64,000 nucleotides of DNA from Rhodothermales bacterium (lineage in GTDB: Bacteria; Bacteroidota; Rhodothermia; Rhodothermales; JABDKH01), in contig CAVYIO010000015.1 of the NCBI GenBank assembly GCA_963768565.1, positions 30,059-94,058 on the forward strand, written 5' to 3'. Both the position numbers and the translations under genes were made by a program. Under the pieces are notes generated by a model. That model saw nothing but the letters and a program-made list of their open reading frames with translations. It was not told the origin of the DNA and made no database searches. Below, piece by piece: positions 46,240 through 62,313 of the stretch (positions are counted from its first letter, which is position 1; each line of letters opens with the position of its first letter).

Positions 46240-46241
46240 TC

Positions 46242-47324
46242 ATGCCAACCAGAAAGGAGAGAATGTTTGAATGGCTCGATGATCGGTTCCAACTGAGTCC
46301 ACTCATCGAGTTCATGCGCCACAAGATGGTGCCAATTCATCGGCACACGATCTGGTACTACATGGGCGGAGTGTCGCTCTTCCTGTTTATCGTCCAGCTC
46401 TTCACGGGCATCCTCCTGTTGCTTTACTACCAGCCGGGCGAAGAGAGTGCATACGAGAGCATTCGCTTCATCATGAACAAGGTGCCATTTGGATGGCTGT
46501 TCAGATCGATCCACAGCTGGGGCGCCAACCTGTTCATCTTCTTCATCTTCGTCCACATGTTCAGCACCTTCTTCACGGCGCGCATATCGCAAGCCGAGGG
46601 AGCTCGACGTGGGTGACGGGATTCATACTGCTCGTTCTTGCGATGGGATTCGGATTCAGCGGGTACCTGCTTCCGTGGAACGAACTCGCATTCTTCGCGA
46701 CCAAGGTGGGTACGGATATCGCGGGCGTGGTGCCGCTCATCGGTGACGCGATCAAGATCGTCCTGCAGAGGCGGACCGGACGTGACCGGAGCGACGCTGA
46801 CCCGGTTCTACGCGTTTCACATCGCACTGATACCTGCCATCTTTACCATCTTCCTGGGCATACACCTGCTGTTCGTTCAGCGTCAGGGTATGCACGAGCC
46901 GGAGTCGGTTGCGAATATGCCCGCGGAGCGGAAGAAGATGATTCCCTTCTTTCCGAACTTCCTGCTGCGAGACGTATTCGCATGGCTGATTGTATTGAAT
47001 CTCGTGCTGTTCCTTTCCGTCTTCTTCCCGTGGGAGATTGGGATCAAGGCCGACCTGTTCGCACCGGCGCCGGTCGGCATCCGGCCTGAATGGTTCTTCA
47101 TGTTCATGTTCCAGACCCTCAAGTGGGTGCCGCCGCATATTCTCGGCATGGAAGGCGAGGTGCTGGGCGTGATGGCATTCGCCGTTGCAGCACTGGCATG
47201 GATGTTGGTGCCCTTCTGGGAGATAAGAAGCCGTTCGACCGGTAAACTGAAACCAATGATCCTAATCGGGTTATTTGCGCTGTTTTTCATCATTGTGATG
47301 ACCATTATTGGATACGCCGTGTAG
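46242..47324 (+). CDS. Cytochrome b of a Rieske/cyt b complex, unsplit (two frameshifts)
   Basis: 'QLFTGILL', '[11 protein letters not shown]', 'GFSGYLLPW', '[11 protein letters not shown]', Qo motif 'PEWF'. Confidence 0.92.
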
Positions 47325-47349
47325 CCCGAAAGAATCAGTGAAACCGACC

Positions 47350-48603
47350 ATGACATACCGAATCGGACTCTGGATGCTGGCCGCCTTCGTGCCGCTCGCC
47401 CTGGCGACGGCTCAGGAGGTCCCGGAAAATCTGGCGGAAGACCAGTGCGTCGTCTGCCACGTCGACGCTTGAGGCGCTGCCGGAAGGCTTTCTCATGGAC
47501 AACGTGCACATGAAGCGGGATCTATCCTGCGTCGGGTGCCACGGGGGAGATGCGACCTCCGATGACGAAGAGGTGGCCCACGCCGGAAATTTTGTGGGCA
47601 TCCCGGCCCCGAAGGACATCCCGGATTTCTGCGGAAAGTGTCACTCCGACCTGCGCATTATGCGCCGCTTCCAGCCGAGCGCATCAACCGACCAGGTCAG
47701 CCAGTACTACACCAGTGTGCATGGCGAGAAACTGCAGGGCGGTGACCTGATGGTTGCTCAGTGTGCAAGCTGCCACACGTCGCATGCCATCCTTCCTGCG
47801 TCGGACGGTCGATCATCTGTACACCCGCTCAACGTTCCCGAGCCATGTGCAACCAGTGCCATGGAGATGCGGACTACATGGCCGGGTACGGAATTCGCAC
47901 GAATCAGTATCGGGATTATGCGAAGAGCGTGCATGGTGTCGCGCTGCTGGAACGACAAGACACAGGGTCACCGGCGTGTAACGACTGCCACGGCAATCAC
48001 GGAGCGATGCCGCCCGGAATCGACGCGATCGAATACGTCTGCGGCATCTGCCACGTGAACAACGCGGAGTTCTTCCACGAAACGAATATGGCGCGGGCAT
48101 TCAACGAGGAAGAGCTTCACGGCTGCGAAGAGTGTCACGGCATACACGACGTTGCGAAAACGACACTGGAGATGGTGGGCGTCGGTGACGAGTCCGTGTG
48201 TATCGCCTGCCATGACGAGGGAGACGAAGGCTACAAGGTCGCCGAAGAAATGTATGGGCAACTCTCCGCACTTGTCAGCGCGCAGGACTCCGCGAGAGTA
48301 CTCGCAGAAGAGGTCCATCGCATCGGGATGGACGACCTGGACATTAGCTATCTGCAGCGGGAAGTAAACCAGAGTCTGATCACGGCTCGGACGCTGGTCC
48401 ACACATTTGACCCGTCAAAAACGGGCGAAGTAACTACCGCCGGGATCGAGACCGCCCGCAACGCCGTTGCACTGGCGCGTACTGAGCTCGAGCAGTTCAG
48501 TTTTCGCAGACTCGGGTTCGGCGTGGCAACGCTGTTTATTACCATCCTGACGGTAGCACTTTTCTTCAAAATTAGGGAAATTGAGTCCAGCAAGGACTCG
48601 TGA
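47350..48603 (+). CDS. Membrane-anchored multiheme cytochrome c, 9 CxxCH (frameshifted)
   Basis: Signal peptide 'MTYRIGLWMLAAFVPLALA'; CVVCH, CVGCH, CGKCH, CASCH, CNQCH, CNDCH, CGICH, CEECH, CIACH across three frames; C-terminal TM. Confidence 0.85.
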
Positions 48604-48651
48604 TCAATAGGAACCAGACTTCGAAAAACAACCATCGTGGTGAATACAAAA

Positions 48652-49281
48652 ATGAAACGACTTACAACCCTTGCTGCATCGAGCATTTCGGTGCTTGCTG
48701 TTGTCCTCCTGTTCGTGGCGATGCAGGTCGACCGACCCACGTCGCGTACGACGTCGGACGACGGTGCTTCGTCTGTTCTCGCGCTCGAGGATGCAGAGTT
48801 CATCGGCGCGGCCAAGTGCAAGACCTGTCACAAGAAAGCGGAGGCAGGTGAGCAGTACCCAAAGTGGGAAGCCAGTGCACATGCAGGTGCATACGCCACG
48901 CTGGCAACAGACAAGGCGAAGGAGATTGCGGCAGCGAAGGGCATTGAGAATCCGCAGACAGCCGATGAGTGCCTCGCGTGCCACGTCACTGCTCACGGAG
49001 TTGCAGCAGAACTTCTCGGGCCGAAGTACAGTGTCGAGGAAGGCGTGAGTTGCGAATCGTGCCACGGTGCCGGCGGCAACTACTACAAGAAGAAGACGAT
49101 GGCGTCGATAACCTCGGGTGAGATAGAAGGTGCGTCGGTTGGCCTCGTAGCTCCGACCGAAGAGACCTGTGTTGCGTGTCACAACGACAAGAGCCCGACC
49201 TTTAAAGGGTTCGACTTTGCGGAGTACTCCGAAAAGATCGCACACCCGATTCCGGACGCAAAGAAAGCGGAATACAAGTAA
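48652..49281 (+). CDS. Tetraheme cytochrome c554-like protein
   Basis: 'FIGAAKCKTCH..QYPKW..AHA', CLACH, 'EGVSCESCHGAG', CVACH. Confidence 0.88.
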   Translation: MKRLTTLAASSISVLAVVLLFVAMQVDRPTSRTTSDDGASSVLALEDAEFIGAAKCKTCHKKAEAGEQYPKWEASAHAGAYATLATDKAKEIAAAKGIENPQTADECLACHVTAHGVAAELLGPKYSVEEGVSCESCHGAGGNYYKKKTMASITSGEIEGASVGLVAPTEETCVACHNDKSPTFKGFDFAEYSEKIAHPIPDAKKAEYK

Positions 49282-49315
49282 GCTTCTACCCACTACAGGT
49301 TAAGGGGGCTGGCCT

Positions 49316-50503
49316 GTGCTGAAGCGTTTATTCGTATCGATCCTGTTCACCGGGGCCCTCGTGGCCCCGGCGTTCAGTCAGGTTGAGTTTTCAGGTACGA
49401 CGCAGTCTTACCTGTATTCGTATGAGACGGCCGACGGAGATCAGAGGGGCGACTTCTACCAGGGTCTTCGCTTTCGGGCATGGCTCCACGACGCTCCGCA
49501 GCTCCAGCTGCGATCCTACATGAGGGTGGCGCGACGTGGCGATCCCGGAGAATGGGAAGCGCGCTGGTACAACGGATCTCTTCGATGGAAACCGGATTCG
49601 CGCGTCGATCTTCGGCTTGGCCGGCAGTTCCTGTACGACGGTGTGATCAACGCATCGTCCGATGCCTTCTCGGTGGCAGCAACACCCACCAAAGACATCA
49701 GGGTCCGTCTCGTCGCGGGACTGGAAACACCCCGTGACCGCGCGTTTGAATTCCTCTCTCCGGACGACGGCTATGTGCTGGGCGGTTTCGCGTCGGGCCG
49801 TTTCGCCAGACAGGCGAAGCTGGACGTGAGCTACTTCCAGCGTAACCGGTCGGATAATCTCGTCTGGCAGGTAGCAGGTGCTTCCTTGACCGGCCAACTG
49901 GTTGACAGGCTGACGTACCTCGCTCAACTCGACTACAATTTGCAGGATGAAGATTTCCAGCGCATGCGGTATCGACTCTCGTATGCGACGGGCCCGTGGA
50001 CCGTTTCCGGTGAGTTTCAGAGTCAGAAACCCCAGGTGTTCGAGGATTCCTACTTCAACATCTTCAGCCTGAATGCCTATCGGCAGATACGCGGCGCCGT
50101 CTATCGTCAATTCGGACAGTACCAGGTAGGGATACAGAACTACTATACGTTGTACGACGAGAGCGAGACTGGTAACGAAATCATCGGAACCCTCTCCGCC
50201 AGGTGGGGCACCATCGGCGTCGTGTACCAGTCCGGGTTCGGGGGCGAACGGATCGGGCTGTATGGTGAGGCCCGCTATGCACTGACACCGAGATTTGAGG
50301 CAAGAGCCCAGAGCAGCTATTATAATTTCCAGCGATATACCGCCGATTTCGATGAGGACGCGACCTCCTTTTCGGCAGGACTACGGTACAATGCCGGTCG
50401 CGAGATCACCGTTGATGCAGAGCTGCAGGAAAGCCTGAACAGTCTGTACGACAACGATCTGCGACTCCTGTTCAGGGTTTCCTACCGACTGTCTACCATC
50501 TGA
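49316..50503 (+). CDS. Outer-membrane beta-barrel (putative porin of a porin-cytochrome conduit)
   Basis: Signal peptide, Cys-free, alternating aromatic strands, 'LRLGRQF', terminal strand 'LRLLFRVSYRL'; flanked by multiheme cytochromes. Confidence 0.75.
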   Translation: MLKRLFVSILFTGALVAPAFSQVEFSGTTQSYLYSYETADGDQRGDFYQGLRFRAWLHDAPQLQLRSYMRVARRGDPGEWEARWYNGSLRWKPDSRVDLRLGRQFLYDGVINASSDAFSVAATPTKDIRVRLVAGLETPRDRAFEFLSPDDGYVLGGFASGRFARQAKLDVSYFQRNRSDNLVWQVAGASLTGQLVDRLTYLAQLDYNLQDEDFQRMRYRLSYATGPWTVSGEFQSQKPQVFEDSYFNIFSLNAYRQIRGAVYRQFGQYQVGIQNYYTLYDESETGNEIIGTLSARWGTIGVVYQSGFGGERIGLYGEARYALTPRFEARAQSSYYNFQRYTADFDEDATSFSAGLRYNAGREITVDAELQESLNSLYDNDLRLLFRVSYRLSTI

Positions 50504-50522
50504 TCAAGAAGAGAACAACGCA

Positions 50523-51446
50523 TTGAAATCCGGACTCGTCATACTGATTTCGCCGCTCGTTCTGGCGTTTGTTTTTCAGTCGCGCATGCCTGACGTCGCG
50601 CGCCCCGCGTCATCTGACGAACTGATATTCAGCCACGTTCTTCATGTGGATGAGAACGAGATGGCGTGCGAGGACTGTCATGGCGGCGTCGAGAGCAGCG
50701 TAACCGGATTGGACAACCTTCTGCCAGACATGGATGTCTGTGCCGATTGTCATGACGTCGACGATGACGACGAGTGCGCGACATGCCACACGAATCCGGA
50801 CGATCCGGAGAGCTCGGACTACATCACGAAATACAGTCAGAAGTTCTCTCACGAGAAGCATCTCGTTGGTGGCTTTGAGTGTCAGGACTGCCACGCGGCT
50901 GTACTCGTCGAAACGCCGACCGAAGAGTCATCTCTGCCGACGATGCTCAACTGCCAGGATTGCCACGAAATGGAATCGGCTTCTCTCGAATGCGCAACGT
51001 GCCACATGCCGGACGACGTGCTGAAGCCCGCCAGTCATGTCGCTGGATTCCTGCATGCTCACTCGGACATGGCCCAGACCGATGCGCATGCAGACCTGAA
51101 CGGTTTGCAGTGCCAGTCGTGTCACGACGATGACTTCTGCCAGGATTGCCACGAGGGAGACAACGTCGACAGATTTACGCACCCGCTCAACTACGAGTTT
51201 ACGCATGCGCTGGACGCGAGGAGCCTGGAGAAAGCATGTATATCGTGCCACACCGATCAGACGTTCTGCGTGGACTGTCACAACGACAACCAGGTCCTGC
51301 CGTTGAACCACCGTCCTGGCTGGGTCAACCGGGTCGATGGCGGCTTGCACCGGTTCGAGGCCTCGAGTGACCTGAACAATTGTATTGCGTGCCATGAGGA
51401 TAACGCAGATCAGATCTGCCAACCCTGCCACGGATCGCCTAACTGA
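50523..51446 (+). CDS. Acidic dodecaheme cytochrome c (c3/c7-like repeats)
   Basis: 12 CxxCH in 307 aa; 'FSHxxH' c7-type motifs occur twice. Confidence 0.9.
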   Translation: MKSGLVILISPLVLAFVFQSRMPDVARPASSDELIFSHVLHVDENEMACEDCHGGVESSVTGLDNLLPDMDVCADCHDVDDDDECATCHTNPDDPESSDYITKYSQKFSHEKHLVGGFECQDCHAAVLVETPTEESSLPTMLNCQDCHEMESASLECATCHMPDDVLKPASHVAGFLHAHSDMAQTDAHADLNGLQCQSCHDDDFCQDCHEGDNVDRFTHPLNYEFTHALDARSLEKACISCHTDQTFCVDCHNDNQVLPLNHRPGWVNRVDGGLHRFEASSDLNNCIACHEDNADQICQPCHGSPN

Positions 51447-51447
51447 T

Positions 51448-52467
51448 ATGCTGAAGTTGCGCAGTATTCCCGTTGCTGTACTCGTTGTGTTCGCTGCATG
51501 GCTGCTGGCCTCTTGCGCGGACACGTCGGATTTCCTTGTCGAGAAAACGCATCCGGATGGCTGGAATAGTGCGTCGTCGGAGACGTTCCACGGGAAGTTC
51601 GTTCTGGAGAGTGCCAGCCCTTCGGAAAGCTGTCAGTCATGTCATGGGCAGGACTATGGTGGCGGTACCTCCGGTGTATCCTGCGCCACGTGCCACACGG
51701 CGTATCCTCATCCGGAAGGTTTTGCCGTGCCGTCGTCGATGGAGTTCCACGAGGCGGTATTTCAGGACATGGCGGACTGGGATATCACGAAGTGTCAGAC
51801 CTGTCATGGTGATGACTACGGCCGGGAGATTATATCCGTGCAGGTGGGCGAGACCATCAGCTGTTTGACGTGCCACGCGGGCGATGACGGACCTGAAGCG
51901 TGCTCCACTTGCCACGGTGGCGCACAGAATGACGCTCCGCCGCAGGATCTGATGGACAACACCGCGACCACCGCCTCCGGTGTCGGTGCTCATCAGCAAC
52001 ACCTCGCTGCACAGATCGCGGAAGGCGTCGAGTGTTCGGAGTGCCACGTCGAGCCCGACGATTTTGACGACCCCGGACATGTCCTTGGTGATTCGACGCC
52101 GGGTATGGCCGAAGTCGTGTTCGGCACACTTGCCACACACGACGGCGAGACAGATCCCGTCTACGATTTCGCGACGTCGACGTGCGGCAACAGCTACTGC
52201 CATGGAGGCTTTGCCTTTGCGAAGGCAGATGCCGGGTCCAATTCGTGGGGCTACGCGGAGGACTTCATCCGCGGCAACAACCCGAACGTGGTCTGGAGTG
52301 CAGTGGGCACTGGCGAGGCCGAGTGCGGCACGTGCCACAGTCTGCCACCAATCGGTCACATTCCGGGCGCGTCCACGTGCTCCAATTGCCACGTCGGTGT
52401 CACCGACGCACAGAACAACATCCTCGACCCCACGCTGCACATCAACGGCGAGAAAGACCTGTTCTAG
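51448..52467 (+). CDS. Lipoprotein multiheme cytochrome with Geobacter-type CxxxxCH/CxxCH domain, 9 heme motifs
   Basis: Lipobox 'LLASC'; 8 CxxCH plus 'CGNSYCH'; 'VGAHQQHL', 'HING'. Confidence 0.88.
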   Translation: MLKLRSIPVAVLVVFAAWLLASCADTSDFLVEKTHPDGWNSASSETFHGKFVLESASPSESCQSCHGQDYGGGTSGVSCATCHTAYPHPEGFAVPSSMEFHEAVFQDMADWDITKCQTCHGDDYGREIISVQVGETISCLTCHAGDDGPEACSTCHGGAQNDAPPQDLMDNTATTASGVGAHQQHLAAQIAEGVECSECHVEPDDFDDPGHVLGDSTPGMAEVVFGTLATHDGETDPVYDFATSTCGNSYCHGGFAFAKADAGSNSWGYAEDFIRGNNPNVVWSAVGTGEAECGTCHSLPPIGHIPGASTCSNCHVGVTDAQNNILDPTLHINGEKDLF

Positions 52468-52643
52468 CACCCTGTTGGCAGGTCATTTGAACAGGCTCGC
52501 GTGAAGGACGATAGCTTGTGTAGTTCGCGTCTACGCCACCCGTCCACCAGCGCGGCGCGACCTTCTCGGTTGAGCATACTCTTGACTCCCTGCGCGAGGG
52601 TCAGGACTCTGCTTGTACCACCAACTGGTCCCACGGATATCCC

Positions 52644-53730
52644 ATGAAGAACCTATTACAACATATCACCGGCGTCGGATTGGTCGTCGTAGCAGCGGGA
52701 AGCCTTCTGGGCTTTGCAATTCTCCGAGGCGGCGGCTCTCCCGGCGGCTACACGGGAGCCCCAATCGATGGGCAGACCTGCACGAATTGTCATAGTTCGG
52801 CACCTGGTTCAGGATCTCTTACGATTACGGCGCCCGCCAGCTACACCCCCGGCGCCCCTCTGGATATCACCGTGGAAATGGATGAACCGGGCGAAACCGA
52901 CCACGGTTTTGAGCTTGTTGTAGTCGATGCCACAACCGGCAGCAACGTCGTCGGGACGATTACACTTGATCAGACGCTCGACGCCACGAAGTTTTCCCTC
53001 TCGAACACGCACGTGACGCACGACAGCCAGGGAGGCGACCCTGGTCAGTGGAAAGTGACGTGGACTCCCGGAGTGAGTGAGACGCAGGCGGTGACCGTGT
53101 ATGTCGCGGGTGCCTCAAAGACCTCCAAGCCCGACCTACAACGAGACATGGACCATCTCGCCAACTCTCCCCGTCGAGCTGTCCTCATTCGACGTTCGCC
53201 TCGACGGGCCAAACGCGATTCTGGACTGGCGTACCGAGTCCGAGTCCAACAACATCGGCTTTGACATCCAGCACGCTGACGACAGCGGCAGCTTTGAGGC
53301 AGTTGCCTTCGTTCCCGGAGCCGGCACGACCTCCGAGGCCCGTGAATACAGCTACACCATCAGCGACCTGCTACCTGGAACACATCGCTTCCGATTGCGG
53401 CAGATCGATCTCGACGGCACCACAACGGTGTCCGAGCAGATCGATGTTGCAGTAGGTGTACCGAATCAGTTCTTCCTTTCTGAGGCGTACCCGAACCCGT
53501 TCAATCCCGCGACGACGTTCGAATTCGCTGTGAGGCAGGACCAGGAAGTTCGGGTTCGCGTCTTCGACGAAATGGGTCGCCAGGTCTCGGATCTGTTCAA
53601 TGGAACGATGAGTGCGAATGAAACGCTCCGCGTCACGTTCGACGCCGCCGGACTGGCCAGCGGTACGTACATCATCCAGATGCAGGGCGCGGACTTCTCC
53701 GAATCCCGACAGGTTGTGCTGCTGAAGTAG
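52644..53730 (+). CDS. T9SS cargo: CxxCH-bearing reeler-like (choice-of-anchor V-like) domain plus CTD (frameshift ~53120)
   Basis: 'GYTGAPIDGQTCTNCH..YTPG..GFEL..VTH..WKVTWTP'; 'LPVELSSF..WRTESESNNIGF'; 'AYPNPFNPAT..GLASGTY'. Confidence 0.82.
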
Positions 53731-53758
53731 CCACCGATTGACAGTCCTGTACCAGGCG

Positions 53759-53789
53759 GGGGCGATCCACATCGTGGGTCGCCCCTTTT
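53759..53789 (+). terminator. Rho-independent terminator
   Basis: GGGGCGATCCAC-atc-GTGGGTCGCCCC-TTTT, 29 bp after the stop at 53730. Confidence 0.8.
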
Positions 53790-54099
53790 CTGTTAGCGCA
53801 TCGTCTGCGCTCGCAAGCTCGCCCCACCGTCCGCGTCCCGACAAAGAGCGCTAACACGTAAGGTATTTCACTACAAATGGTGTACGGCAAAGACTATTTA
53901 GTTTCTCGTCACTCGTCGATTATAATTACGTGTAGTGAAATCGACTCGCCATTAAAGCGCTGCACACACTGATCCACCGACAATTTGCGGATTGGAGAAC
54001 CTCGGAAAGGACTCAAAACCCGATTACCACCGGCACTGCCCAAACTTGTCTGACGTTGCGCCAGACCCGGGTCGAGCGCCGGAACGGTGCCAGTCTGGA

Positions 54100-56090
54100 A
54101 TGATGAACATGAGACAAATCTGCGCCTCGCTGCTACTGTTTGTGCTCCTGCCCCTGCTGGGCCCTCCGGTTCTGGCCCAGGAGTATGCCGTGGAGGAGGA
54201 CGAAGAGTGCATGATGTGTCATGATGACCGCACTCTCACAAAGGAGGTGAACGGCCGCACCATTTCCCTCTTTGTGAACTACCGCTCGCACGCGATTTCT
54301 GTACATGGCAAAGAGGGTTGCACATCCTGCCACTCGGACGTCGACGTGGACGACCTACCGCACGAGGATGAACTCGAAAAGGTCGAGTGCGACATGTGCC
54401 ACGACGACCAGTTCGCGGAGTACGAGCGCAGTCTGCACGGACAGGCGTTCAGGAGGGGTCGCTACCTGGCTCCGACGTGCCTGTCGTGCCACGGCAAGCA
54501 CAACATGCGGTCGTCGACGGATGAGAGATCGCCCACGTTCGTGATGAACATCCCGAATTTATGCGGGAGGTGTCACAAAGAAGGAACACTCGTCTCTGAG
54601 CTCGCAGGAATAAGCCAGCACAACGTGCTCGAAAACTACTCGCAGTCGATTCACGGAGACGGTCTGTTCCGTCGCGGACTGACCGTCACTGCTGTGTGTA
54701 CCAGTTGTCATAAATCTCATGACATCCTGCCGCACGAGAGCCGGGCGTCCTCGATCAATCGGGCCAATATTGCATCCACGTGCATGAAGTGCCACGCGCA
54801 GATCGAGAAAGTGCACGTGAAGGTGATTGACGGTAAGCTCTGGGAAGAGAAGCCGCATCAGCTACCGATTTGCGTCGATTGCCATCAGCCACACATTGTT
54901 CGGAGGGTCTTCTATACCGAGAGCTTTCCCGACAGCCAGTGTCTGTCGTGTCATGGCGACCCGGACTTCCAGAAAGAGAAAGACGGAGAGCAGGTTTCCC
55001 TTCTACGTGGACGCCGACGAGATCGCGGGTTCTGCACACGGTGGAAATGCCTGTTTCAAGTGTCATACGAACGTATCCCGTTCGAAAGACCCGGTTTGTA
55101 TTGGGAGTGGACCGGTCGACTGCTCTATGTGCCATTCCGCACAGGTTGAGGAGTTCACCGGAAGTGAACACGGTCGACGGGTGGCAGAGGGAGATTCGAC
55201 GGCGCCAAACTGCACGGACTGTCACGGTTCTCACGGCACACTCTTCAAGGAAGATCAGGCTTCGCCAACGTTCACCCGGAATATCCCTGCACTATGCGGA
55301 CAGTGTCATAGCGACGGACAGAAAGCGGCGGCCGGCTATCAAGGGGGCGGAGCATCAGATCGTCAGCAACTACACGATGAGTATCCACGGCAAGGGCTTG
55401 CTCGAGAGTGGACTCATGGTGACGGCAACGTGTGTCAGCTGCCATACCGCCCACAGCGAAAAGCCCATCACGGACTCCACGTCTACGGTCTTTCCCGCAA
55501 ACATTGCAGCAACTTGCGCCCAGTGTCACCTGGGCATCTATGAAGAGTTCAAGAGCAGCGTGCACAGCCCCACCGTTTCAAAGAACACGGACGCGAAGCT
55601 ACCGGTGTGCAACGACTGCCATCAGTCTCACACGATCAAGCGGGTAGACGTAGGGGACTTTCGACAGGAGATCCTCGATCAGTGCGGCAAATGCCACCTT
55701 GACGTGACGGAGACGTACTTCGACACGTTCCACGGGAAGGTGTCCAAACTCGGCGCCGAGCAGACGGCGAAATGCTACGACTGTCACGGAGCGCACAATA
55801 TTTTGCCTCCGACAAATCCGGACTCAAAGCTGAGTCGAGCCAACGTCGTGGAGACGTGCAAGGCATGTCACCCCAACTCAAATCGAAAGTTTGTTGGCTA
55901 CCTGACCCACGCCACGCACCACGACAAGGACAAGTACCCATATCTGCACTACACGTACCTCTTCATGACGACGTTGCTCGTCAGCGTTTTTGCTTTCTTC
56001 GGTGTGCACACGCTCCTCTGGATACCCCGGGCCGTCAGGGAGCGCCAGAAGATTGAGAGAACAAAGAATGGCGGGAAAGCAAATGAGTGA
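54100..56090 (+). CDS. Membrane-anchored multiheme cytochrome c, ~19 CxxCH, CbcA-like (two frameshifts)
   Basis: 9+4+6 CxxCH in three consecutive frames, with recurring 'SxHG..CxxCH' doubled-motif repeats; C-terminal TM; overlaps the start of the cyt b gene. Confidence 0.85.
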
Positions 56091-57024
56091 TCCCTCTGAC
56101 GGATCTTCGATCGTTGAACAAGCGGGAGTTGATTCTCCTGTTGAACCGGCAACCACAGACGCGCCACAGCCGGAACCCGCGCCGGACGCTGAGCCGGGGC
56201 GATTCTACGAACGGTTTGACGGCTATTCCCGGTTCTTGCATCTGCTGGTAATCGTCAGCTTCCTGTCGCTGGCCATCACCGGAATGACGATCAAGTTTTC
56301 AGGGGTCGGAGTATTCCAGACGCTGTCAAGAATCCTGGGCGGATATGAGGTGACGGGATTCATTCATCGCGTTGCGGCCATTATCACCTTTGTGTACTTC
56401 TTCCTGCACGTGAGCTACCTGGTGAAGAACAAGCGGAAGACGAAGACTTCGATGCGCGGGATGTTATCAGGCGAAGACACGTTGTGGTTTCGCAAGCAGG
56501 ACATCATCGAGTTTGGGCAGACGGTGAAGTGGTTTCTCGGAATCGGTCCACGTCCTGGTTATGGCAGATGGACCTACTGGGAAAAGTTCGACTACATGGC
56601 CGTGTTCTGGGGCGTGTTGGTAATCGGTAGCAGCGGCATGCTGCTCTGGTTTCCGGAGTTCTTCACGCGTCTTGGAATCCCGGGATCCTGGATCAACGTC
56701 GCCACGATCATCCACAGTGACGAAGCACTTCTCGCAACAGGGTTCATCTTCACGGTCCATTTCTTCAACACACATTTTCGTCCGGATAAATTCCCCATGG
56801 ATCCCGTGATCTTTACGGGTCGCGTGGATTTACATGAATTGAAAGAGGACCGGCCCCGTTTGTACGCGCAACTGTTGGAATCAGGCAAACTGGAAGACGC
56901 CATCACCGGGCCGCCACCGGCGTGGCTTGAGCGATGGGCGCGCGTGTTCGGAATGACGGCTCTGACCCTGGGCATACTGACGATCGTTATGATCATTTAC
57001 TCGATGGTGTTCCTCTACCGCTAA
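56083..57024 (+). CDS. Diheme cytochrome b, FdnI/HydC-type (CbcB-like quinol oxidoreductase subunit)
   Basis: 'RFLHLL..AITG', 'IHRVAA..LH', 'YGRWTYWEKFDYMAVFWG', 'IHSDEALLA..VHFF'. Confidence 0.88.
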   Translation: MSDPSDGSSIVEQAGVDSPVEPATTDAPQPEPAPDAEPGRFYERFDGYSRFLHLLVIVSFLSLAITGMTIKFSGVGVFQTLSRILGGYEVTGFIHRVAAIITFVYFFLHVSYLVKNKRKTKTSMRGMLSGEDTLWFRKQDIIEFGQTVKWFLGIGPRPGYGRWTYWEKFDYMAVFWGVLVIGSSGMLLWFPEFFTRLGIPGSWINVATIIHSDEALLATGFIFTVHFFNTHFRPDKFPMDPVIFTGRVDLHELKEDRPRLYAQLLESGKLEDAITGPPPAWLERWARVFGMTALTLGILTIVMIIYSMVFLYR

Positions 57025-57071
57025 AGCCAGTATGTCGTTTCTGAGACAACCGAATCACCTCCTTAATCAAA

Positions 57072-59705
57072 GTGGCTGTCGGCATGTACCGGGAATCAGA
57101 GGTGGCATTTTCGACGAAGTTGGCCGGGAAGTTGCTCACCATCATCGGTCTGGCCCTGGTTGGGGTGGTCGTCGCCGGTGCAGGAAAACCGGATGGATCT
57201 CCGGCCCCGTCCCCAATCTCGATCTCGATACTTGAAGGGCGTGGAATTGATTTTCTGCCGGCGCACGAACCGTACAGCTCTGCACGCGGCAGTTCGTGGT
57301 TGCCGGTAGCGGATGCCCGACATTCGTCCATCCGGAGTCGCGCGTCTGTGGCGGACCTGGACGCTTGCCTTGACTGTCATGATGACGACAGCATGACGAT
57401 GGAGAGAGACGGTCGAGAGGTCTCTCTCAACGTGTCGCCGGAAGCCTATGCCGCTTCACCTCACGGGAAGATCGATTGTGTAGAGTGCCACGTCGGGTAT
57501 GACCCGGATGAAGAACCGCACAACGAGAACGCGCAGCCGGTAGACTGTGCAACCTGTCACAACTCGGCGTCGAGAGCCTTTCGTGCCAGTGGTCACAGGA
57601 CGGACCTGTCATGTTCGTCGTGTCATTCGAATCTCCATACGAGAGGTGGCACGCGTGCGACGGTCGCGACGTGCGCCAGCTGTCATGATGATGCTGTGCG
57701 CGATGTCAAGGCTAGTCTGCACGCCAGCGGAGACTTCGGACCGACATGTCTCACCTGTCACGATTCTCACCGTGTCGCACTGGCAAACTCAGCCACGTGT
57801 CTATCGTGTCACGGAGAGCGCGAGTTTGTGCATGACCATATCCTGGACGAGGACGTCGAGGCGGTACTGAAGTACAGCGACAGCATTCACGGCGACAACA
57901 TTGAGTGCAATGACTGCCATGCAAGCCACAAGGTGTTGTCGACAGACGACCCTGGATCGCCCGTTTCGAGAAAGAACGTTGCCAGCACCTGTGCCACGTG
58001 CCACGACGACGCGGCTGACGAATACCTCGCGTCCGAACATGGCAGGGCGCTGCAGTCCGGCTTTGAAGGGGCTCCGACATGTACGGACTGTCATGGCGAG
58101 CACGACATCCATCAGATAACGGATAGTGAGTCGCTCGTAAGTCGGCAGCATGAGGTTGAGGTGTGCGAAAGCTGCCATCTGAACACGAAGGAAGTCACCG
58201 CCCGGATGACACATACCACGGGCTTTGTGGCGGGCTACAATCTGAGCGTACACGGACTCGCGTCGGCCGGAGGAAACGCCGACGCTGCCATCTGCAGCGA
58301 CTGTCACGGAGGACACCAGGCGGTAAAGGCAAGCAACCCCAACTCGAAGATCAACAAGTTCAACATTGCTGCAACCTGTGGACATTGTCACGACGAGATC
58401 GAGACGGTGTTCGAAGGCAGCATTCATGGAATCGCACTTGCAGACGGCAATTCGGATTCGCCCACGTGTACGACGTGCCACTCCGAACATGCGATCATGG
58501 AACACACGAGTTCGGCATCACCTGTGGCAGCCCTGAACGTCTCCGAGCAGGTGTGTCGGCCATGCCATGACTCGTACAAACTGTCGACCAAATATGGATT
58601 TCCGTCGGACCGGCCCAAGTCGTTTGGTGACAGTTATCACGGTCTCGCCACGAGGTTCGGATCGGACGAAGCGGCAAACTGCGCAAGTTGCCATGGTGTG
58701 CACGACATCTTACCATCGTCGGACGAGCGATCGAGAGTGTTCCCCGGGAATCTCGAAGTGACGTGTGGAGAGTGCCATCCGGGAGCCACCGCAAATTTCG
58801 CGCGCGGTTCTGTTCATGTTGTCCGCACGCCGAGCGGCGATTCGCTACTGTACTGGATCTCGACGATATACATCCTGGTGATCATTGCGACGATCGGGGC
58901 CATGGGGGTCCACAACATGTTGGACTGGGGTCGCAAGATGATCAACCATTACCATGAACGACTCCAACCGCCGCCCCGTGGAATTCCCGGCGTAGAGCGG
59001 AAGAGAGGTCTCTACGTTCGCATGACGGTGAACGAGCGAGTTCAGCACGCGCTGCTGGCCGGTACCTTCATCATGCTGACCGTCACCGGATTCATGCTCA
59101 AGTTTCCGGATGCCTGGTGGGTCGTCTTTCTCCGGGACAACTTCGGGGTCGGTGTGTTTGATCTTCGAGGAATACTGCACAGAGGAGCGGCGATTGTCAT
59201 GGTGGGCGACTCAGTCTACCATCTCTACTACATCATCTTTACGAAACGGGGCAGGCAGTTTGTAAGCGATATCATGCTCCGCGGCCAGGATTTTCGGGAC
59301 ATCATACAGATGATGCGCTACTACCTCGGTGCTGCAAAGAATCGACCACTTTTCGATCGCTTCAACTACGTCGAGAAGTCGGAGTACTGGGCCCTCATCT
59401 GGGGCACCATCGTGATGACTGTAACGGGAATTATTCTCTGGTTCGAAAACCAGTTTATGGGACAGTTCTCGAAGCTGTTCGTGGACGTGAGTGAGACGGT
59501 TCACTACTACGAGGCCTGGCTCGCATTTCTGGCTATTGTGGTGTGGCACATCTACTACGTGATATTCAACCCTGACGCCTACCCCATGAATTTCACATGG
59601 CTGACAGGAAGAATCACGGAAGAGGAGATGGAGCACGAGCACCCGCTCGAGTTGCAGCGGCTGAAGCGTGAGGAAGAGGAGAGGAGTCGCGAAACGGAAG
59701 AGTGA
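57072..59705 (+). CDS. Fused multiheme cytochrome c (17 CxxCH) / cytochrome b, CbcL-like
   Basis: 17 CxxCH followed by 'ERVQHAL..TG', 'LHRGAA..YH', 'RFNYVEKSEYWALIWG', 'VHYYEAWLA..WHIY'; start uncertain. Confidence 0.9.
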   Translation: MAVGMYRESEVAFSTKLAGKLLTIIGLALVGVVVAGAGKPDGSPAPSPISISILEGRGIDFLPAHEPYSSARGSSWLPVADARHSSIRSRASVADLDACLDCHDDDSMTMERDGREVSLNVSPEAYAASPHGKIDCVECHVGYDPDEEPHNENAQPVDCATCHNSASRAFRASGHRTDLSCSSCHSNLHTRGGTRATVATCASCHDDAVRDVKASLHASGDFGPTCLTCHDSHRVALANSATCLSCHGEREFVHDHILDEDVEAVLKYSDSIHGDNIECNDCHASHKVLSTDDPGSPVSRKNVASTCATCHDDAADEYLASEHGRALQSGFEGAPTCTDCHGEHDIHQITDSESLVSRQHEVEVCESCHLNTKEVTARMTHTTGFVAGYNLSVHGLASAGGNADAAICSDCHGGHQAVKASNPNSKINKFNIAATCGHCHDEIETVFEGSIHGIALADGNSDSPTCTTCHSEHAIMEHTSSASPVAALNVSEQVCRPCHDSYKLSTKYGFPSDRPKSFGDSYHGLATRFGSDEAANCASCHGVHDILPSSDERSRVFPGNLEVTCGECHPGATANFARGSVHVVRTPSGDSLLYWISTIYILVIIATIGAMGVHNMLDWGRKMINHYHERLQPPPRGIPGVERKRGLYVRMTVNERVQHALLAGTFIMLTVTGFMLKFPDAWWVVFLRDNFGVGVFDLRGILHRGAAIVMVGDSVYHLYYIIFTKRGRQFVSDIMLRGQDFRDIIQMMRYYLGAAKNRPLFDRFNYVEKSEYWALIWGTIVMTVTGIILWFENQFMGQFSKLFVDVSETVHYYEAWLAFLAIVVWHIYYVIFNPDAYPMNFTWLTGRITEEEMEHEHPLELQRLKREEEERSRETEE

Positions 59706-59873
59706 CCCCTGTCGAGATCGGCTCAACATTCGGTCCAGCCAGAAAAACCTGATTCAACCCGGGTCTTTTCTGAAGCTTTGGCGTTTGGTACGCCGCCCGC
59801 GGTATACTAGTCGTGGGTTGGTTTTAAGGGACACGGGCACGCTGCCGTTCCTTGAGAATATCAACTACTGGAT

Positions 59874-61904
59874 ATGAACCGATTTCGATCTCTTAGTGGA
59901 AAGATTTCCGTGTGGCTCAAGCGCCCCGGAAGCAAGCGCAAGCTGGCAATCCGCTCGTCAGTAATCGGTGTTCTGGCGATTCTCTTCGTGGGTCTCTCGG
60001 CCGAGTACACGTCGCGACCAACGTTTTGTCCCACTTGCCATTACATGCAGCCGTACTACGAGAGCTGGCTTGCGGCGCCGGCTCACGAGGAGGTGTCGTG
60101 CGTCACGTGTCATTTTCCACCGGGGATTGCCGGGACAATACGCGGTAAAGTTGAAGGACTAATGCAGGTGGTGAACTACCTGGGCAGCTCGTACACGCGC
60201 CGAAAGCCCTGGGCAGAGATTGATGACGCCTCGTGTCTCCAGAGCGGTTGTCATGATACGCGACTTCTCGCAGGCAAAGTCGGTTTCAGGGGAGTTGCGT
60301 TCGACCACGAACCGCACCTCGGAGATCTCCGGCGAGGTAAAGAACTGCGATGCACCAGCTGCCACTCGCAGATCGTCCAGGGCGACCATATCCGGGTGAC
60401 GGAGACCACATGCTATCTGTGTCATCTCAAGCCCGAAGGCAACATTGAAACGGCCGAATTCGAGCGAGCCTCGGACTGCACGACCTGCCACGTCTGGGAT
60501 TCGGTCACGGTCGAACAGCCGACAGAGATCACCGCGTTCCACACGGAAGTTCTTTCACGCGGACTGGAGTGTAACCAGTGTCACAGCAAGACGGTCATGG
60601 GAGACGGGTTTGTCCCGCCCGAGAACTGCTTCGGCTGTCACAGCGAGCGGGACCGCCTTGACAAGATCGACGACCTGGATCTCATTCACCGTGAGCACAT
60701 CTCCGAAAACAAGATCGAGTGCATCCAGTGCCACCTCCAGATTCAGCACAAGATTCAACGTGTGAATCTGGAGCAGGAACTCGATTGTGCGACCTGCCAC
60801 AGGAAGACCCACAGGGAGCAAGTGATGCTCTTCACGGGAGAGATCGGTGATGGCGATTCAGCGCCCAGTGCGATGTTCGCAGCCGGCCTTGACTGCGCCG
60901 GTTGTCATGTGTTTCACGAAGACATCGTCGGAGCCGACGATGATCGCATAGCCCAGCCGCAATCCTGTGAGAATTGCCATGGAGCGGGCTACAACCGGCT
61001 CCTGCGCCTCTGGAAGCAGGGCGCAAATGCAAACCTTGTCGACTTCAGCCGAACCATTCGGACGGTAGAGAATGCGGCCAGAAATCGGGGCGCCCAGACC
61101 CGGGAGAAAACGGATCCCTTCATTGAGAAAGCGAAGAAGATTCTCCACGTTGTGCAGACGGGGCAGCCGGTTCACAATGTGACGTTCTACGACCAGCTTA
61201 TCCGTACCGGCTACACAGATCTGGAGAAGGCCGTTCAGGCGGCAAACCTGGGCGTAAGAGTGCCGCCGTATAAGAGTGCGCCAACGGTACCCGGTCAGTG
61301 TGCGAACTGTCACACCGGTATCGATCGGCTTTCGGTCCAGCACGAAGGACTGACGTTCTCCCATGAGATCCATGTGGACATGCAGGGCGTTACGTGCGGG
61401 ACGTGCCATTCGAATGCCGTACGACACGGGCAGGTGGTGCTGACGATGCAGAACTGCAATAGCTGTCACCACAAGGCGACGCCGCCGGAAGTCACGTGCG
61501 AATCCTGTCACGAAGAGGCTGCAAGCATCTATGCCGGCACGTATCTCGACAAGGATACACCGGACTATATGTTTGAGGAAGATGTCGAGTGCGTGGATTG
61601 TCACATCCCGGATTCAAAGGTCATTCGCCCCACCGTTGCCTCGTGTCTCGATTGTCACGATGAGGGCTACGACTCCGACGCCGAGGATTGGAAAGTGGAA
61701 GTCACCGACCTTACCCAGTCGATTCGGTCGCTGATGACTGGCATACCGCGCTCCAGGCGTGACGCAGCGGCCTACGTGACAGCGAGAAGGGTCCTGGCCG
61801 ATTTCGAGAAGGGTGCAGCCGGTGGCCTTCATAACTATGAGTTGACGAGCGAATTGCTGCTCGAAGTGAAGGGTGGACTGGAAGCAATGGGCGTCGGTCA
61901 GTAG
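59874..61904 (+). CDS. NapC/NirT-type membrane-anchored multiheme cytochrome c, 18 heme motifs
   Basis: N-terminal TM then 'YTSRPTFCPTCHYMQPYYESW..H.EVSCVTCH' (NapC/NirT N-domain with CxxCHxM); 17 CxxCH plus 'CLQSGCH'. Confidence 0.88.
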   Translation: MNRFRSLSGKISVWLKRPGSKRKLAIRSSVIGVLAILFVGLSAEYTSRPTFCPTCHYMQPYYESWLAAPAHEEVSCVTCHFPPGIAGTIRGKVEGLMQVVNYLGSSYTRRKPWAEIDDASCLQSGCHDTRLLAGKVGFRGVAFDHEPHLGDLRRGKELRCTSCHSQIVQGDHIRVTETTCYLCHLKPEGNIETAEFERASDCTTCHVWDSVTVEQPTEITAFHTEVLSRGLECNQCHSKTVMGDGFVPPENCFGCHSERDRLDKIDDLDLIHREHISENKIECIQCHLQIQHKIQRVNLEQELDCATCHRKTHREQVMLFTGEIGDGDSAPSAMFAAGLDCAGCHVFHEDIVGADDDRIAQPQSCENCHGAGYNRLLRLWKQGANANLVDFSRTIRTVENAARNRGAQTREKTDPFIEKAKKILHVVQTGQPVHNVTFYDQLIRTGYTDLEKAVQAANLGVRVPPYKSAPTVPGQCANCHTGIDRLSVQHEGLTFSHEIHVDMQGVTCGTCHSNAVRHGQVVLTMQNCNSCHHKATPPEVTCESCHEEAASIYAGTYLDKDTPDYMFEEDVECVDCHIPDSKVIRPTVASCLDCHDEGYDSDAEDWKVEVTDLTQSIRSLMTGIPRSRRDAAAYVTARRVLADFEKGAAGGLHNYELTSELLLEVKGGLEAMGVGQ

Positions 61905-62313
61905 AGATCCGCGAACAGATCGAAAGAGCGGGATAGCATGTTCTGCCTCGCTCGATCCCGATTCCGCGGATGGCCACTGGCCCGATCTTGTCCCCGCGCT
62001 GGCGGTCGGCCACGTGGAGTCCACGACGATTCGGGAAGTTCGCGACATTCGGCAGTCCGGCGATCTCCTGGCGAATCTCAGGCTCGAGTCTCGCAGGACG
62101 TCTGTAGTACGAACTGACGCGTAATGTTAGTGTGAAATCCGGATCATGGAATTCTCGGCCCTCAACCTCATGTTTTATGCCGTTGAAGTAGATGGACGGC
62201 ACGCCTGGTGGCGGAACAGCGAGACGTGCAAGGATCGAACCCCTTCGGAGTCGGTACCAATTGATTGGACACGACGAGACGTACCTGATACTCCGGGCCG
62301 AGTCAATTAGTCG

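Follow-up and report, generated by a model that had tools for sequence, protein, structure and literature searches.

A multihaem cytochrome island with candidate quinone-pool modules in an uncultured bacterium of a Rhodothermales-related lineage

Gene content of the island

The window that we analysed is a 64,000-nucleotide stretch from the genome of an uncultured marine-sediment bacterium, to which MAGs of the Rhodothermales/Rhodothermia are the closest named relatives. Between approximately 46.2 and 61.9 kb it carries an island of cytochrome genes that, as read from open reading frames and synteny, all lie on the plus strand; in a motif scan, the minus strand held zero CxxCH motifs between 46 and 62 kb and only four in the whole window. 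When frames with at least three motifs are counted, 10 of the 17 such frames in the genome and 85 of its 124 CxxCH motifs sit in the island, and it is the main multihaem locus of this genome. The part from 54100 to 61904 (plus strand) encodes, for module 1, a cytochrome c of 19 CxxCH and a dihaem cytochrome b in a gene of its own; for module 2, a 17-CxxCH/cytochrome b fusion; and for module 3, an NrfH/NapC-headed protein. A sequence-only reading had placed three modules in series here; upstream of them, at 46.2-53.7 kb, we find a fourth, a PetB-type cytochrome b with a nine-haem cytochrome c (module 0), together with a porin-cytochrome set. The features are:

46242..47321, plus strand: module 0a, PetB-type cytochrome b (b6 plus petD-like, about seven helices), placed by tblastn and garbled between three insertions
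47308..48603, plus strand: module 0b, cytochrome c with nine CxxCH and a C-terminal membrane helix, placed via the congener G001
48637..49281, plus strand: four-haem c554-like cytochrome with an N-terminal hydrophobic segment (four CxxCH; PF13435, 65.3 bits)
49316..50503, plus strand: predicted outer-membrane beta-barrel of 395 residues, putative porin of the conduit, from its signal-peptide-like N-terminus and its position
50523..51446, plus strand: 307-residue cytochrome with 12 CxxCH (motif scan), candidate conduit cytochrome
51385..52467, plus strand: lipoprotein-type cytochrome with an LLASC lipobox-like motif, eight CxxCH and CGNSYCH, candidate surface cytochrome
52644..53730, plus strand: monohaem protein whose C-terminus is a sorting domain for type IX secretion
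53758..53786, plus strand: terminator-like hairpin (13 pairs, nine of them G-C) between the conduit genes and module 1
54100..56090, plus strand: module 1a, cytochrome c of 19 CxxCH that has a signal peptide and, at its C-terminus, a membrane helix with a conserved histidine
56068..57024, plus strand: module 1b, FdnI-type dihaem cytochrome b with four core helices and a C-terminal helix, recognised by PF01292
57072..59705, plus strand: module 2, 877-residue fusion of an N-terminal signal anchor, 17 CxxCH, a membrane helix (TM1) and an FdnI-type dihaem cytochrome b
59795..59818, plus strand: terminator-like hairpin between modules 2 and 3
59874..61904, plus strand: module 3, 676 residues, with one N-terminal helix, an NrfH-like head and then 14 CxxCH with two helical inserts

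The two hairpins are a hint only, since the scan as a whole (16 found) did not rise above the 13.4 expected from shuffled sequence. No sigma-54 BccR-type regulator was noticed among the ORFs annotated beside or in the island.

In good agreement with the sequence-only reading, profile searches and motif counts recover a cytochrome of 19 haem motifs beside a separate FdnI-type cytochrome b (PF01292, Ni_hydr_CYTB, 48.8 bits against a cut-off of 30.1), a single chain that joins 17 CxxCH (57366-58764) to a second such domain (48.7 bits, same cut-off), and a protein of 18 motifs, namely 17 CxxCH and one CX4CH (CLQSGCH) between 60027 and 61644, with a NapC/NirT N-terminal domain (PF03264, 32.3 bits against 24.1). 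Upstream, the congener orthologue of module 0a (L011:6773-7852) matches PF00033 at 172.8 bits, as well as PF13631 and PF00032, and its module 0b is an intact 430-residue frame with nine CxxCH and a helix at residues 401-419; the congener orthologue of the monohaem protein is likewise intact (361 residues; PF18962, 32.1 bits). The genes for the barrel, the 12-haem cytochrome and the lipoprotein cytochrome follow one another in conduit order. In departure from porin-cytochrome conduits, the barrel matches no porin family, nor any other Pfam family, above cut-off, the best match being a weak one to Porin_4 (19.8 bits against 27); its N-terminus and position suggest that the protein would fold as a barrel. 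The gene is kept between those of the four-haem and 12-haem proteins in the genomes G025 and G009 and in several phyla. The four-haem c554-like cytochrome, a candidate periplasmic carrier, accompanies the barrel and 12-haem genes in related loci.

Several of these genes are frame-broken in this assembly. With the congener G001, whose DNA is 88% identical to and collinear with the window, as the reference for indels, the PetB-type gene carries single-base insertions at 46581, 46602 and 46767, the nine-haem gene is frame-shifted at 47466 and 47839/47841, and the monohaem gene at 53135. The module 1a gene, which begins with the ATG of its signal peptide at 54100 (MMNMRQICASLLL...), is read in three frames that hold nine (frame 1, 54208-54940), four (frame 2, 55052-55295) and six (frame 3, 55431-55857) of its CxxCH motifs; the sequence-only reading did not report this. 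Compared with the congener, the gene has one extra base at 55001 and another at 55347. Among covering runs, which are contigs of related sediment populations, the extra base at 55340/55341 is absent from all three, and that at 55001 from one of two, the other run being a 35-base partial match. Since the same assembly also breaks rpoB and rpoC, each into several frames, we attribute the shifts in the 19-haem gene to assembly errors. Pseudogenisation of the 19-haem gene is ruled out by these broken rpoB and rpoC genes together with the congener orthologue, an intact 699-residue frame with 19 CxxCH.

CbcL-type modules and the NrfH-headed protein

The AlphaFold2 model of module 2 has a mean pLDDT of 80.9, and its b domain superposes on FdnI, the cytochrome b556 of Escherichia coli formate dehydrogenase-N (1KQF chain C), with a Z of 15.6 and an rmsd of 2.7 Å over 206 of 216 residues. 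Residues H659, H703, H811 and H826 align with the four haem histidines of FdnI and, together with H614 and H717, do not vary across an alignment of 41 homologues. Module 2 differs from FdnI in that its partner is a covalent haem c chain and not a molybdoenzyme with an FeS subunit, and sequence similarity between the two is marginal (E 0.034). The extra helix before the b core presumably takes the role of the FdnH anchor helix in formate dehydrogenase-N. Within the haem c chain, residues 193-486 with their 10 haem motifs superpose on the conduit cytochrome MtrA (6R2Q chain A; Z 8.4, rmsd 4.4 Å, 230 residues, 24% identity), although in module 2 this part of the chain is anchored to the inner membrane.

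The sequence-only reading likened module 2 to CbcL, and this comparison, made against the published description, holds: a periplasmic multihaem c domain forms the N-terminal part and a HydC/FdnI-like dihaem cytochrome b the C-terminal part of one polypeptide, and the gene lies beside other cytochrome genes. As judged from its sequence, the protein falls within the CbcL/MtrH/MtoC family by domain order, length, haem count and histidines. Members of the family have been described as 416-1034 residues long with 3-23 CxxCH (Zhong and Shi 2018, PMC6295460) and as at least 28.6% identical to one another. Their C-terminal halves have six predicted helices, or five or four in a few members; in module 2, a simple hydropathy scan and the model give five, TM1 and four core helices, in addition to the N-terminal signal anchor. 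The b-haem histidines of CbcL are described as lying one each in helices 1-3 and two in helix 5, a pattern matched by H614, H659, H703/H717 and H811/H826. Module 2 differs from the CbcL of Geobacter sulfurreducens in carrying 17 haems versus nine, and in coming from a Rhodothermales-related lineage.

Module 1 consists of two genes, not a single polypeptide, and is likewise split in the congener. The ends of the genes overlap, the stop of module 1a being at 56090 and the candidate starts of module 1b at 56068 or 56083. Module 1b shares 32% identity with the b part of module 2 (E 7e-27), and the five histidines of the b region all coincide in the alignment; the C-terminal helix of module 1a aligns with TM1 of the fusion, its histidine with H614. 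By these alignments modules 1 and 2 are paralogues, the former in split form, and both would be of the CbcL/MtrH/MtoC type with an FdnI fold; compared with CbcL, module 1 spreads this design over two genes, with the break after TM1, and has an internally duplicated 19-haem chain. The duplication is a tandem one (residues 103-325 versus 347-571; 40% identity over 227 residues, E 1.5e-54). The description of the modules as three distinct ones is thus right insofar as there are several inner-membrane modules linked to the quinone pool, with two types of anchor side by side, and fails for modules 1 and 2, which are paralogous.

Module 1 had also been described as CbcBA-like. The two do share a layout, in which the c gene precedes the b gene and a cytochrome c anchored by a C-terminal His-bearing helix is followed by a separate four-helix dihaem cytochrome b. 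Since the b parts of modules 1 and 2 are paralogous, and the CbcB of Geobacter is reportedly not homologous in sequence to CbcL (Joshi et al. 2021 preprint, 10.1101/2021.04.15.440034), module 1 appears to resemble CbcBA only in being split. The homology of module 1b to the adjacent CbcL-type domain argues against orthology with CbcB, which we set apart by its description. The sequence-only reading was correct that the Geobacter proteins carry fewer than 10 haems each; published counts for G. sulfurreducens are nine for CbcL, seven for CbcBA (versus the 19 of module 1) and seven for ImcH. Its 'roughly doubled' haem chains are literally so in module 1, through the tandem duplication, but not in the other modules, and large haem counts are not new for CbcL-type proteins given the published range.

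In module 3, the predicted helix spans residues 24-42 and the motifs of the tetrahaem head begin at residues 52, 76, 121 (the CX4CH) and 160. The protein matches the NCBIfam model for NrfH (TIGR03153) with an E of 6.7e-18 and 65.1 bits, under the equivalog cut-off of 134.2, and aligns with the NrfH of Desulfovibrio vulgaris (2J7A chain C) with an E of 6.1e-8, CPTCHYM standing against CTSCHIM. Residues C52, H56, M58, K92, C121, C126 and H127 are invariant among homologues. The signatures of NrfH are given in the ImcH preprint as CxxCHxM at haem 1 and a conserved lysine, Lys82 in D. vulgaris. The alignment ends at residue 91 of the query and 81 of the chain, and the next residue of the query is the invariant K92, which by this adjacency would be equivalent to Lys82. 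Module 3 thus shares with NrfH the single N-terminal helix, the first motif, the position of the lysine and the PF03264 match. It differs in its CX4CH third motif and in the 14 further CxxCH and two helical inserts that extend it to one chain of 676 residues (its AlphaFold2 model is poor, pLDDT 67.2), and it has no detected NrfA partner in this 80%-complete genome.

The sequence-only reading had classed module 3 as NapC/NirT-type and set it beside ImcH. The NapC/NirT head stands, in an NrfH-like form; the features of ImcH are not found. Family members of ImcH are described as having three N-terminal helices (one in two exceptions), an atypical CX3CH by the membrane domain, 5-9 CxxCH and His/Gln at haem 1, whereas module 3 has one predicted helix, CxxCHxM, no CX3CH, a CX4CH as its third motif and 17 CxxCH. 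Compared by description, the likeness to ImcH is that of an inner-membrane multihaem protein of the NapC/NirT superfamily, encoded among genes for extracellular electron transfer and presumed to oxidise quinol at the periplasmic face. We therefore rejected ImcH as an identification and assign module 3, on its sequence features, to the NrfH-like proteins.

The cytochromes b of the island do not appear to anchor other enzymes: the genome has just three PF01292-type matches, all inside the island, relatives from at least 580 stretches of species genomes have the cytochrome b in covalent fusion with haem c domains, and NrfA (PF02335) has no match above cut-off in this genome. This absence, like that of a small trihaem carrier from the same genome, is weak because the genome is 80% complete and error-rich.

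Distribution of the modules

For each of the two families, CbcL-type and NrfH-like, more than 1,600 relatives were detected. The parts belong to known, widespread families, and the region is a good example of a known but uncharacterised toolkit. The island genes are collinear in the congener. Across the order, module 3 is found in 7 of 41 genomes, module 2 in 7 (5 of them strong matches) and the cytochrome b of module 1 in 5; the carriers are the same genomes, and the modules are an accessory, co-travelling set. Conduit parts lie within 10 kb of the fusion in 22 of 80 loci from other phyla.

Proposed working of the island and its alternatives

We propose, with a probability of about 0.6, that one accessory island for extracellular electron transfer has its inner-membrane end in this region, where four modules join the quinone pool to long periplasmic haem c chains and then to the conduit. 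The 17-19-haem membrane cytochromes would thereby probably relay electrons out of the quinone pool in the direction of the cell surface. What the analyses show is gene content, domain families, the b-domain fold, conserved ligands, paralogy, synteny and distribution. In the scheme that we infer for the direction of flow, the site of quinol oxidation, the division of labour by potential and the contacts between the parts, electrons would leave the pool through the PetB-type cytochrome b with its nine-haem partner, the split and the fused CbcL-type modules, and the NrfH/NapC-type protein with its 18 motifs. They would pass to the porin and 12-haem cytochrome, either directly or via the four-haem c554-like protein, and further to the surface lipoprotein cytochrome and the type-IX-secreted haem protein. 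The NrfH-type head would oxidise menaquinol at the periplasmic face, an electroneutral step with protons released outside. The FdnI-type modules would move electrons across the membrane, between periplasmic haems and a cytoplasmic-side quinone site whose position we take solely from FdnI, so that their operation would depend on the membrane potential. Different anchors may serve as alternative 'gears', each suited to acceptors (or donors) in its own range of potential. The comparison with the CbcL and NapC-type logic of Geobacter, made in the sequence-only reading, is apt in this respect: use of ImcH versus CbcL and CbcBA according to acceptor potential has been proposed there, and the energetic reasoning is that of the ImcH preprint. 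The sequence-only reading also suggested that the haem chains may be long enough to cross the periplasm without soluble shuttles, an idea to which the TonB_C tails of module 3 orthologues in sister genera lend a little indirect support.

The same island might instead run inwards, as has been proposed for MtoC, drawing on Fe(II) outside the cell, a cathode-like mineral or a partner cell to reduce the quinone pool or to supply the oxidases. FdnI-type b units naturally pass periplasmic electrons to quinone, and the b domain is homologous in fold to 1KQF, whose FdnI-type b unit reduces quinone. The MtoC of Fe(II) oxidisers belongs to the CbcL/MtrH/MtoC family, in which, by the published account of Zhong and Shi (PMC6295460), no sequence feature separates the two directions, and our genome has three haem-copper oxidase loci; electron uptake is therefore possible. 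We nevertheless hold inward flow to be unlikely. NrfH/NapC-type proteins are known as quinol dehydrogenases, the partners of ImcH type and NapC type described so far come only from reducers, and the relatives are mostly from anoxic sediment and groundwater lineages (Ignavibacteriota, Calditrichota and Acidobacteriota), which is suggestive only.

Outward flow by alternative routes also has to be weighed against a single obligate inner-membrane supercomplex, built from both CbcL-type units, fused and split, and from the NrfH-type protein. In other phyla, 29 of 80 loci have a split unit next to the fused one, and in each of the 29 a 19-haem-like gene directly neighbours the second cytochrome b. 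The modules are confined to the same minority of genomes in the order, and in the window they share a strand and are closely spaced, with 48 bases between the cytochrome b of module 1 and the fusion. Still, pairing is not universal: where the 10-kb flanks are complete, 26 of 46 loci lack a second b module within that distance. A NapC head is absent from 44 of the same 46. In G025, module 3, module 1 and the four-haem, barrel and 12-haem genes are together, but the fusion stands apart on a different contig, where approximately 10 kb around it holds no other gene of the island. G009 has, in a row, the PetB, nine-haem, four-haem, barrel, 12-haem and lipoprotein cytochrome genes and then module 3, with neither module 1 nor module 2 on this 19.9-kb contig. 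Every module, moreover, comes with a separate quinone-side anchor and a separate haem chain. An obligate complex is, on this evidence, decidedly improbable.

Least probable of all is that catalytic haems in the long cytochromes let the modules serve soluble periplasmic acceptors (nitrite, sulfur or metalloid oxyanions) beside a coincidental porin neighbourhood: an NrfH-like head is described as normally working with a periplasmic reductase, and haem-domain profiles give weak matches to NrfB, HAO, octahaem and MccA-type cytochromes, but NrfA is missing above cut-off as noted, the HAO and NrfB matches are generic multihaem similarity (Z 7-8, rmsd 7-8 Å), linkage to the porin, 12-haem and lipoprotein-cytochrome genes is kept in several families and phyla, and in sister genera the tail of some module 3 orthologues is a TonB_C domain for outer-membrane docking.

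The cytochrome gene block

The final 16 kb of the window consist of a single same-strand run of cytochrome genes: by six-frame count, 89 CxxCH motifs lie on the plus strand between 47 and 62 kb, and the minus strand carries four across the entire window and none inside the block. This island accounts for 85 of the genome's 124 CxxCH motifs in frames with at least three motifs, and all three of the genome's PF01292-type matches fall in it. Outside the island we found three haem-copper oxidase loci, one NiFe hydrogenase large subunit and one molybdopterin enzyme; NrfA gave no match above cut-off in this 80%-complete genome. The overall count in a promoter and terminator scan was not above that of shuffled sequences.

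Genes of the island, upstream to downstream group; for genes broken in the window the intact frames of G001, a congener (same-genus) genome, were substituted
Within 46242-48603, +: PetB-type cytochrome b (G001 copy: PF00033, 172.8 bits)
Within 46242-48603, after the PetB-type gene, +: 9-haem cytochrome c with a C-terminal helix
Upstream, +: 4-haem c554-like protein
Upstream, +: putative barrel, 395 aa
Upstream, +: 12-haem cytochrome
Upstream, +: lipoprotein-type cytochrome, 8 CxxCH and one CX5CH
Upstream, +: monohaem protein with a type IX secretion tail
54100-56090, +: secreted cytochrome c, 19 CxxCH, C-terminal membrane helix (module 1a)
56068-57024, +: membrane cytochrome b (module 1b; PF01292, 48.8 bits, cut-off 30.1)
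57072-59705, +: 877-aa fusion: N-terminal signal anchor, 17 CxxCH, C-terminal cytochrome b domain (module 2; PF01292, 48.7 bits, cut-off 30.1)
59874-61904, +: 676-aa protein, single N-terminal helix, 17 CxxCH plus a CX4CH (module 3; PF03264, NapC/NirT, 32.3 bits, cut-off 24.1)

The sequence-only reading had described three multihaem membrane modules at 54100-61904, and this observation is borne out, since gene content, CxxCH counts and the Pfam and NCBIfam matches agree, with PF01292 on both cytochrome b parts and PF03264 on module 3. The top NCBIfam matches are formate-dehydrogenase gamma and NrfH, every one of them under its equivalog cut-off. The description of the three as distinct quinol-oxidising types did not survive: modules 1 and 2 belong to one family, and the island holds four quinone-side modules, with a porin-cytochrome-like set between them, because a PetB-type cytochrome b and a 9-haem cytochrome c also lie upstream on the same strand. 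No adjoining Rieske gene was noticed beside this additional pair (46242-48603).

The source gene call for the fusion (P0001, 785 aa) begins about 92 residues after the start of the 877-aa frame (window 57072-57350), a start that would lose the N-terminal signal anchor and probably also the first CxxCH (residue 99). Fusion homologues of 856-877 aa span 95-97% of the 877-aa frame.

A CbcL-type family and an NrfH-headed cytochrome

The cytochrome b of module 1 is 32% identical to the b domain of the fusion (E 7e-27), and fusion residues H659, H703, H717, H811 and H826 are matched by its aligned histidines. Furthermore, the 19-haem protein ends in a helix that aligns with membrane helix 1 of the fusion, H614 included, and none of the six histidines varies among 41 aligned homologues. 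Since the b parts, the histidines and this helix all align with the fusion, module 1 is the fused design split after its first transmembrane helix. The earlier label 'CbcBA-like' therefore suits module 1 in its split architecture only: its b unit is homologous to the b domain of the CbcL-type fusion, whereas Geobacter CbcB is reported to share no sequence homology with CbcL (10.1101/2021.04.15.440034).

An AlphaFold2 model of the fusion (mean pLDDT 80.9, pTM 0.61) places its b domain on E. coli FdnI (Z 15.6, rmsd 2.7 Å, 206 of 216 residues), with the hydrogenase-1 cytochrome b ranking behind (Z 10.9). Fold and four histidine positions are common to the two: H659, H703, H811 and H826 each align with a histidine of FdnI that serves there as a haem ligand. 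The genome does encode a molybdopterin enzyme (C24) and a NiFe hydrogenase large subunit (C22), but we rejected the possibility that the b units anchor a formate dehydrogenase or a hydrogenase encoded elsewhere, as they are linked to haem c proteins by fusion or by translational coupling.

Residues 103-325 and 347-571 of the 19-haem chain form an internal tandem duplication (40% identity, E 1.5e-54), and among the fusion homologues of at least 690 aa (114 of the 120 among the matches listed) the CxxCH count is 17 in 63 proteins, 13 in 29, 19 in 14, 18 in six, and 12 and 16 in one each. A previous survey reported CbcL/MtrH/MtoC homologues of 416-1034 aa with 3-23 CxxCH in 15 phyla, Bacteroidetes, Ignavibacteriae and Calditrichaeota among them (Zhong and Shi, 2018, PMC6295460).

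Module 3 had been read as an 18-haem protein with a NapC/NirT head. The PF03264 match and the 17 CxxCH plus one CX4CH are in good agreement with this, and the head can be placed more closely: its N-terminal part matches NrfH of Desulfovibrio (E 6.1e-8 to 2J7A chain C), with CPTCHYM over CTSCHIM, and C52, H56, M58, K92 and the CX4CH residues C121, C126 and H127 are invariant in 40 aligned family members. The CxxCHxM motif and the conserved lysine, which module 3 has in common with NrfH, are named as NrfH features in the ImcH preprint. The defining traits of ImcH, in contrast, are three helices, a CX3CH motif and 5-9 CxxCH, none of which is found in module 3 with its single helix, CX4CH and 17 CxxCH; by these motifs, module 3 resembles NrfH and not ImcH. 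Length and haem number are tightly conserved in the family: 112 of the 114 members of at least 640 aa among the matches listed carry 17 CxxCH.

The AlphaFold2 model of module 3 is poor (pLDDT 67.2, head below 50). Residues 373-457 and 599-674 (window ~60990-61244 and ~61668-61895) are modelled as long-helix bundles with pLDDT ~90; the first interrupts the haem chain, and the second, which bears an invariant H653-N654, ends it. In the literature searched, which included the text of Zhong and Shi (2018), we came across no account of a family that joins an NrfH head to 17-18 haems, nor of this island within Rhodothermales.

Distribution of the modules

Relatives of both long proteins are numerous: 1982 of 8000 scored candidates match the fusion at E ≤0.001, and module 3 has 1659 relatives. 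A scan for the fusion with one genome per species gave at least 598 stretches, at least 580 of them confirmed, and the best 80 of these at least 598 lie in Calditrichota, Ignavibacteriota, Kryptoniota, Bacteroidota, Rhodothermales and Acidobacteriota MAGs.

Features within 10 kb of the fusion, in the best 80 of at least 598 loci and in the 46 of these with full flanks
PetB-type cytochrome b: 30/80 loci; 22/46 full-flank loci
Second CbcL-type cytochrome b: 29/80; 20/46
Conduit parts: 22/80; 19/46
NapC head: 8/80; 2/46
Second cytochrome b together with a NapC head: 3/80

In all 29 loci with a second cytochrome b, a 19-haem-like gene precedes it. Since this second b is nearer to the module 1 cytochrome b (53-62% identity) than to the fusion b domain (only 27-34%), the split and fused forms are old, separately conserved paralogues that often travel together. 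Such a pair, kept across phyla with 55% identity between orthologues and ~30% between paralogues, offers a clean system for studying the role of a second CbcL-type unit.

Within the order, module 3 occurs in 7 of 41 genomes, module 2 in 7 of 41 (strongly in 5) and the module 1 cytochrome b in 5 of 41; all occur in the same minority of genomes, and a number of complete genomes lack every one of them. The modules can also be found apart: the related genome G025 has the fusion by itself on a separate contig, and G009 has module 3 after the conduit genes but neither module 1 nor module 2.

The island is a real, well-conserved example of a widespread but unstudied toolkit, less unusual than previously supposed; what is new about it is chiefly the long cytochrome with an NrfH head, together with the TonB_C variants of that protein. 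Mechanistic understanding of extracellular electron transfer is limited to a few Proteobacteria and Desulfuromonadia. Among Ignavibacteriota, Calditrichota, Kryptoniota, Bacteroidota, Rhodothermales relatives and Acidobacteriota of sediments and groundwater, the families described here are very widely distributed, and to our knowledge none of these families has been studied so far.

Probable alternative anchors and a proposed periplasm-spanning wire

By homology, the NrfH-type head would oxidise menaquinol at the periplasmic face, and in the FdnI-type units two b haems would relay electrons between the periplasmic haem chain and a quinone site on the cytoplasmic side. Our best reading is that these are alternative anchors, differing in energetic cost, that may feed a common outer-membrane conduit, possibly as the redox-potential ladder first proposed; the ImcH preprint argues the same energetic contrast for ImcH versus CbcL and CbcBA. 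Should NrfH-type and FdnI-type anchors offer a choice of energetic cost, as in Geobacter, then this solution has emerged or been passed on well outside Geobacter, and this would help to infer metal and electrode respiration from metagenomes.

It had also been proposed that the haem chains might cross the periplasm unaided. In its fuller form, the module 3 family, and perhaps the 17-19-haem CbcL-type modules, would be inner-membrane-anchored haem wires that touch the outer-membrane conduit without a soluble shuttle in the FCB-group and Acidobacteriota carriers, the anchors serving as energetic gears for one bridge. We consider this unlikely, at roughly one chance in five. Its strongest hint comes from module 3 orthologues of the sister-genus genomes G009 (L098, G009:C47, 7877-10303, minus strand) and G004 (L099, G004:C231, 979-3387), 802-808 aa long, which end in a proline-rich linker and a TonB_C tail (74-76 bits, cut-off 24.6), as do P0123, P0124, P0126 and P0132, four relatives from the database. 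The TonB C-terminal domain otherwise docks an inner-membrane protein onto outer-membrane proteins, and we are not aware of any earlier case in which a quinol-dehydrogenase haem chain of the inner membrane carries a domain for docking to the outer membrane. Also in favour of a wire, modelled residues 193-486 of module 2, with ten haem motifs, superpose on MtrA (Z 8.4, rmsd 4.4 Å, 230 residues), our sole proxy for wire length, and no small trihaem carrier was seen in the 80%-complete genome. Against it, the island's own conserved 4-haem protein could act as a carrier, and the module 3 copies of the window, G001, G018 and G025 lack TonB_C, with no such domain in any frame downstream of the window's copy. 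The tailed form nevertheless provides a testable handle on electron passage through the periplasm.

Frame-breaking insertions and flanking genes

In this assembly the 19-haem gene is spread over three reading frames. Window 46001-64000 and G001 are collinear (88-92% DNA identity), and the G001 orthologue is an unbroken 699-aa frame with 19 CxxCH; relative to G001, the window has single extra bases at 55001 and 55347 within this gene and other uncompensated single-base insertions at 46581, 46602, 46767, 47466, 47839/47841, 53135 and 62806. In contigs from sequencing runs, which represent related sediment populations and not this strain since the share of sampled words present in a run never exceeded 0.28, the extra base at 55340/55341 was absent in all three covering runs and that at 55001 in one of two, the remaining run giving a 35-base partial match. 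No RNA run was among the runs listed for this stretch. The rpoB and rpoC genes of the same assembly (G000:C20:64019-72102) are likewise scattered over several frames. The intact congener, the related contigs without the extra bases and the similarly broken rpoB and rpoC rule out a pseudogene or a programmed frameshift and argue for assembly errors, not gene decay. The window is a typical, error-laden MAG copy of the toolkit. Single-base insertions occur assembly-wide, frequently in frame-restoring sets, and the gene calls and the 80% completeness figure of this MAG need to be read in this light.

Downstream of the island lie an HlyD-like membrane-fusion gene (62314-63370, judged by eye), broken by the insertion at 62806, and a VTC-domain gene (63301-63999; PF09359, 125 bits), neither with an obvious link to the cytochromes. 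In G001, a short contig (L008, G001:C338, 1-2561) encodes part of another fusion copy (90% identity) and, after it, the head of a module 3 protein (92% identity), which could reflect a second strain in the bin or a duplication.
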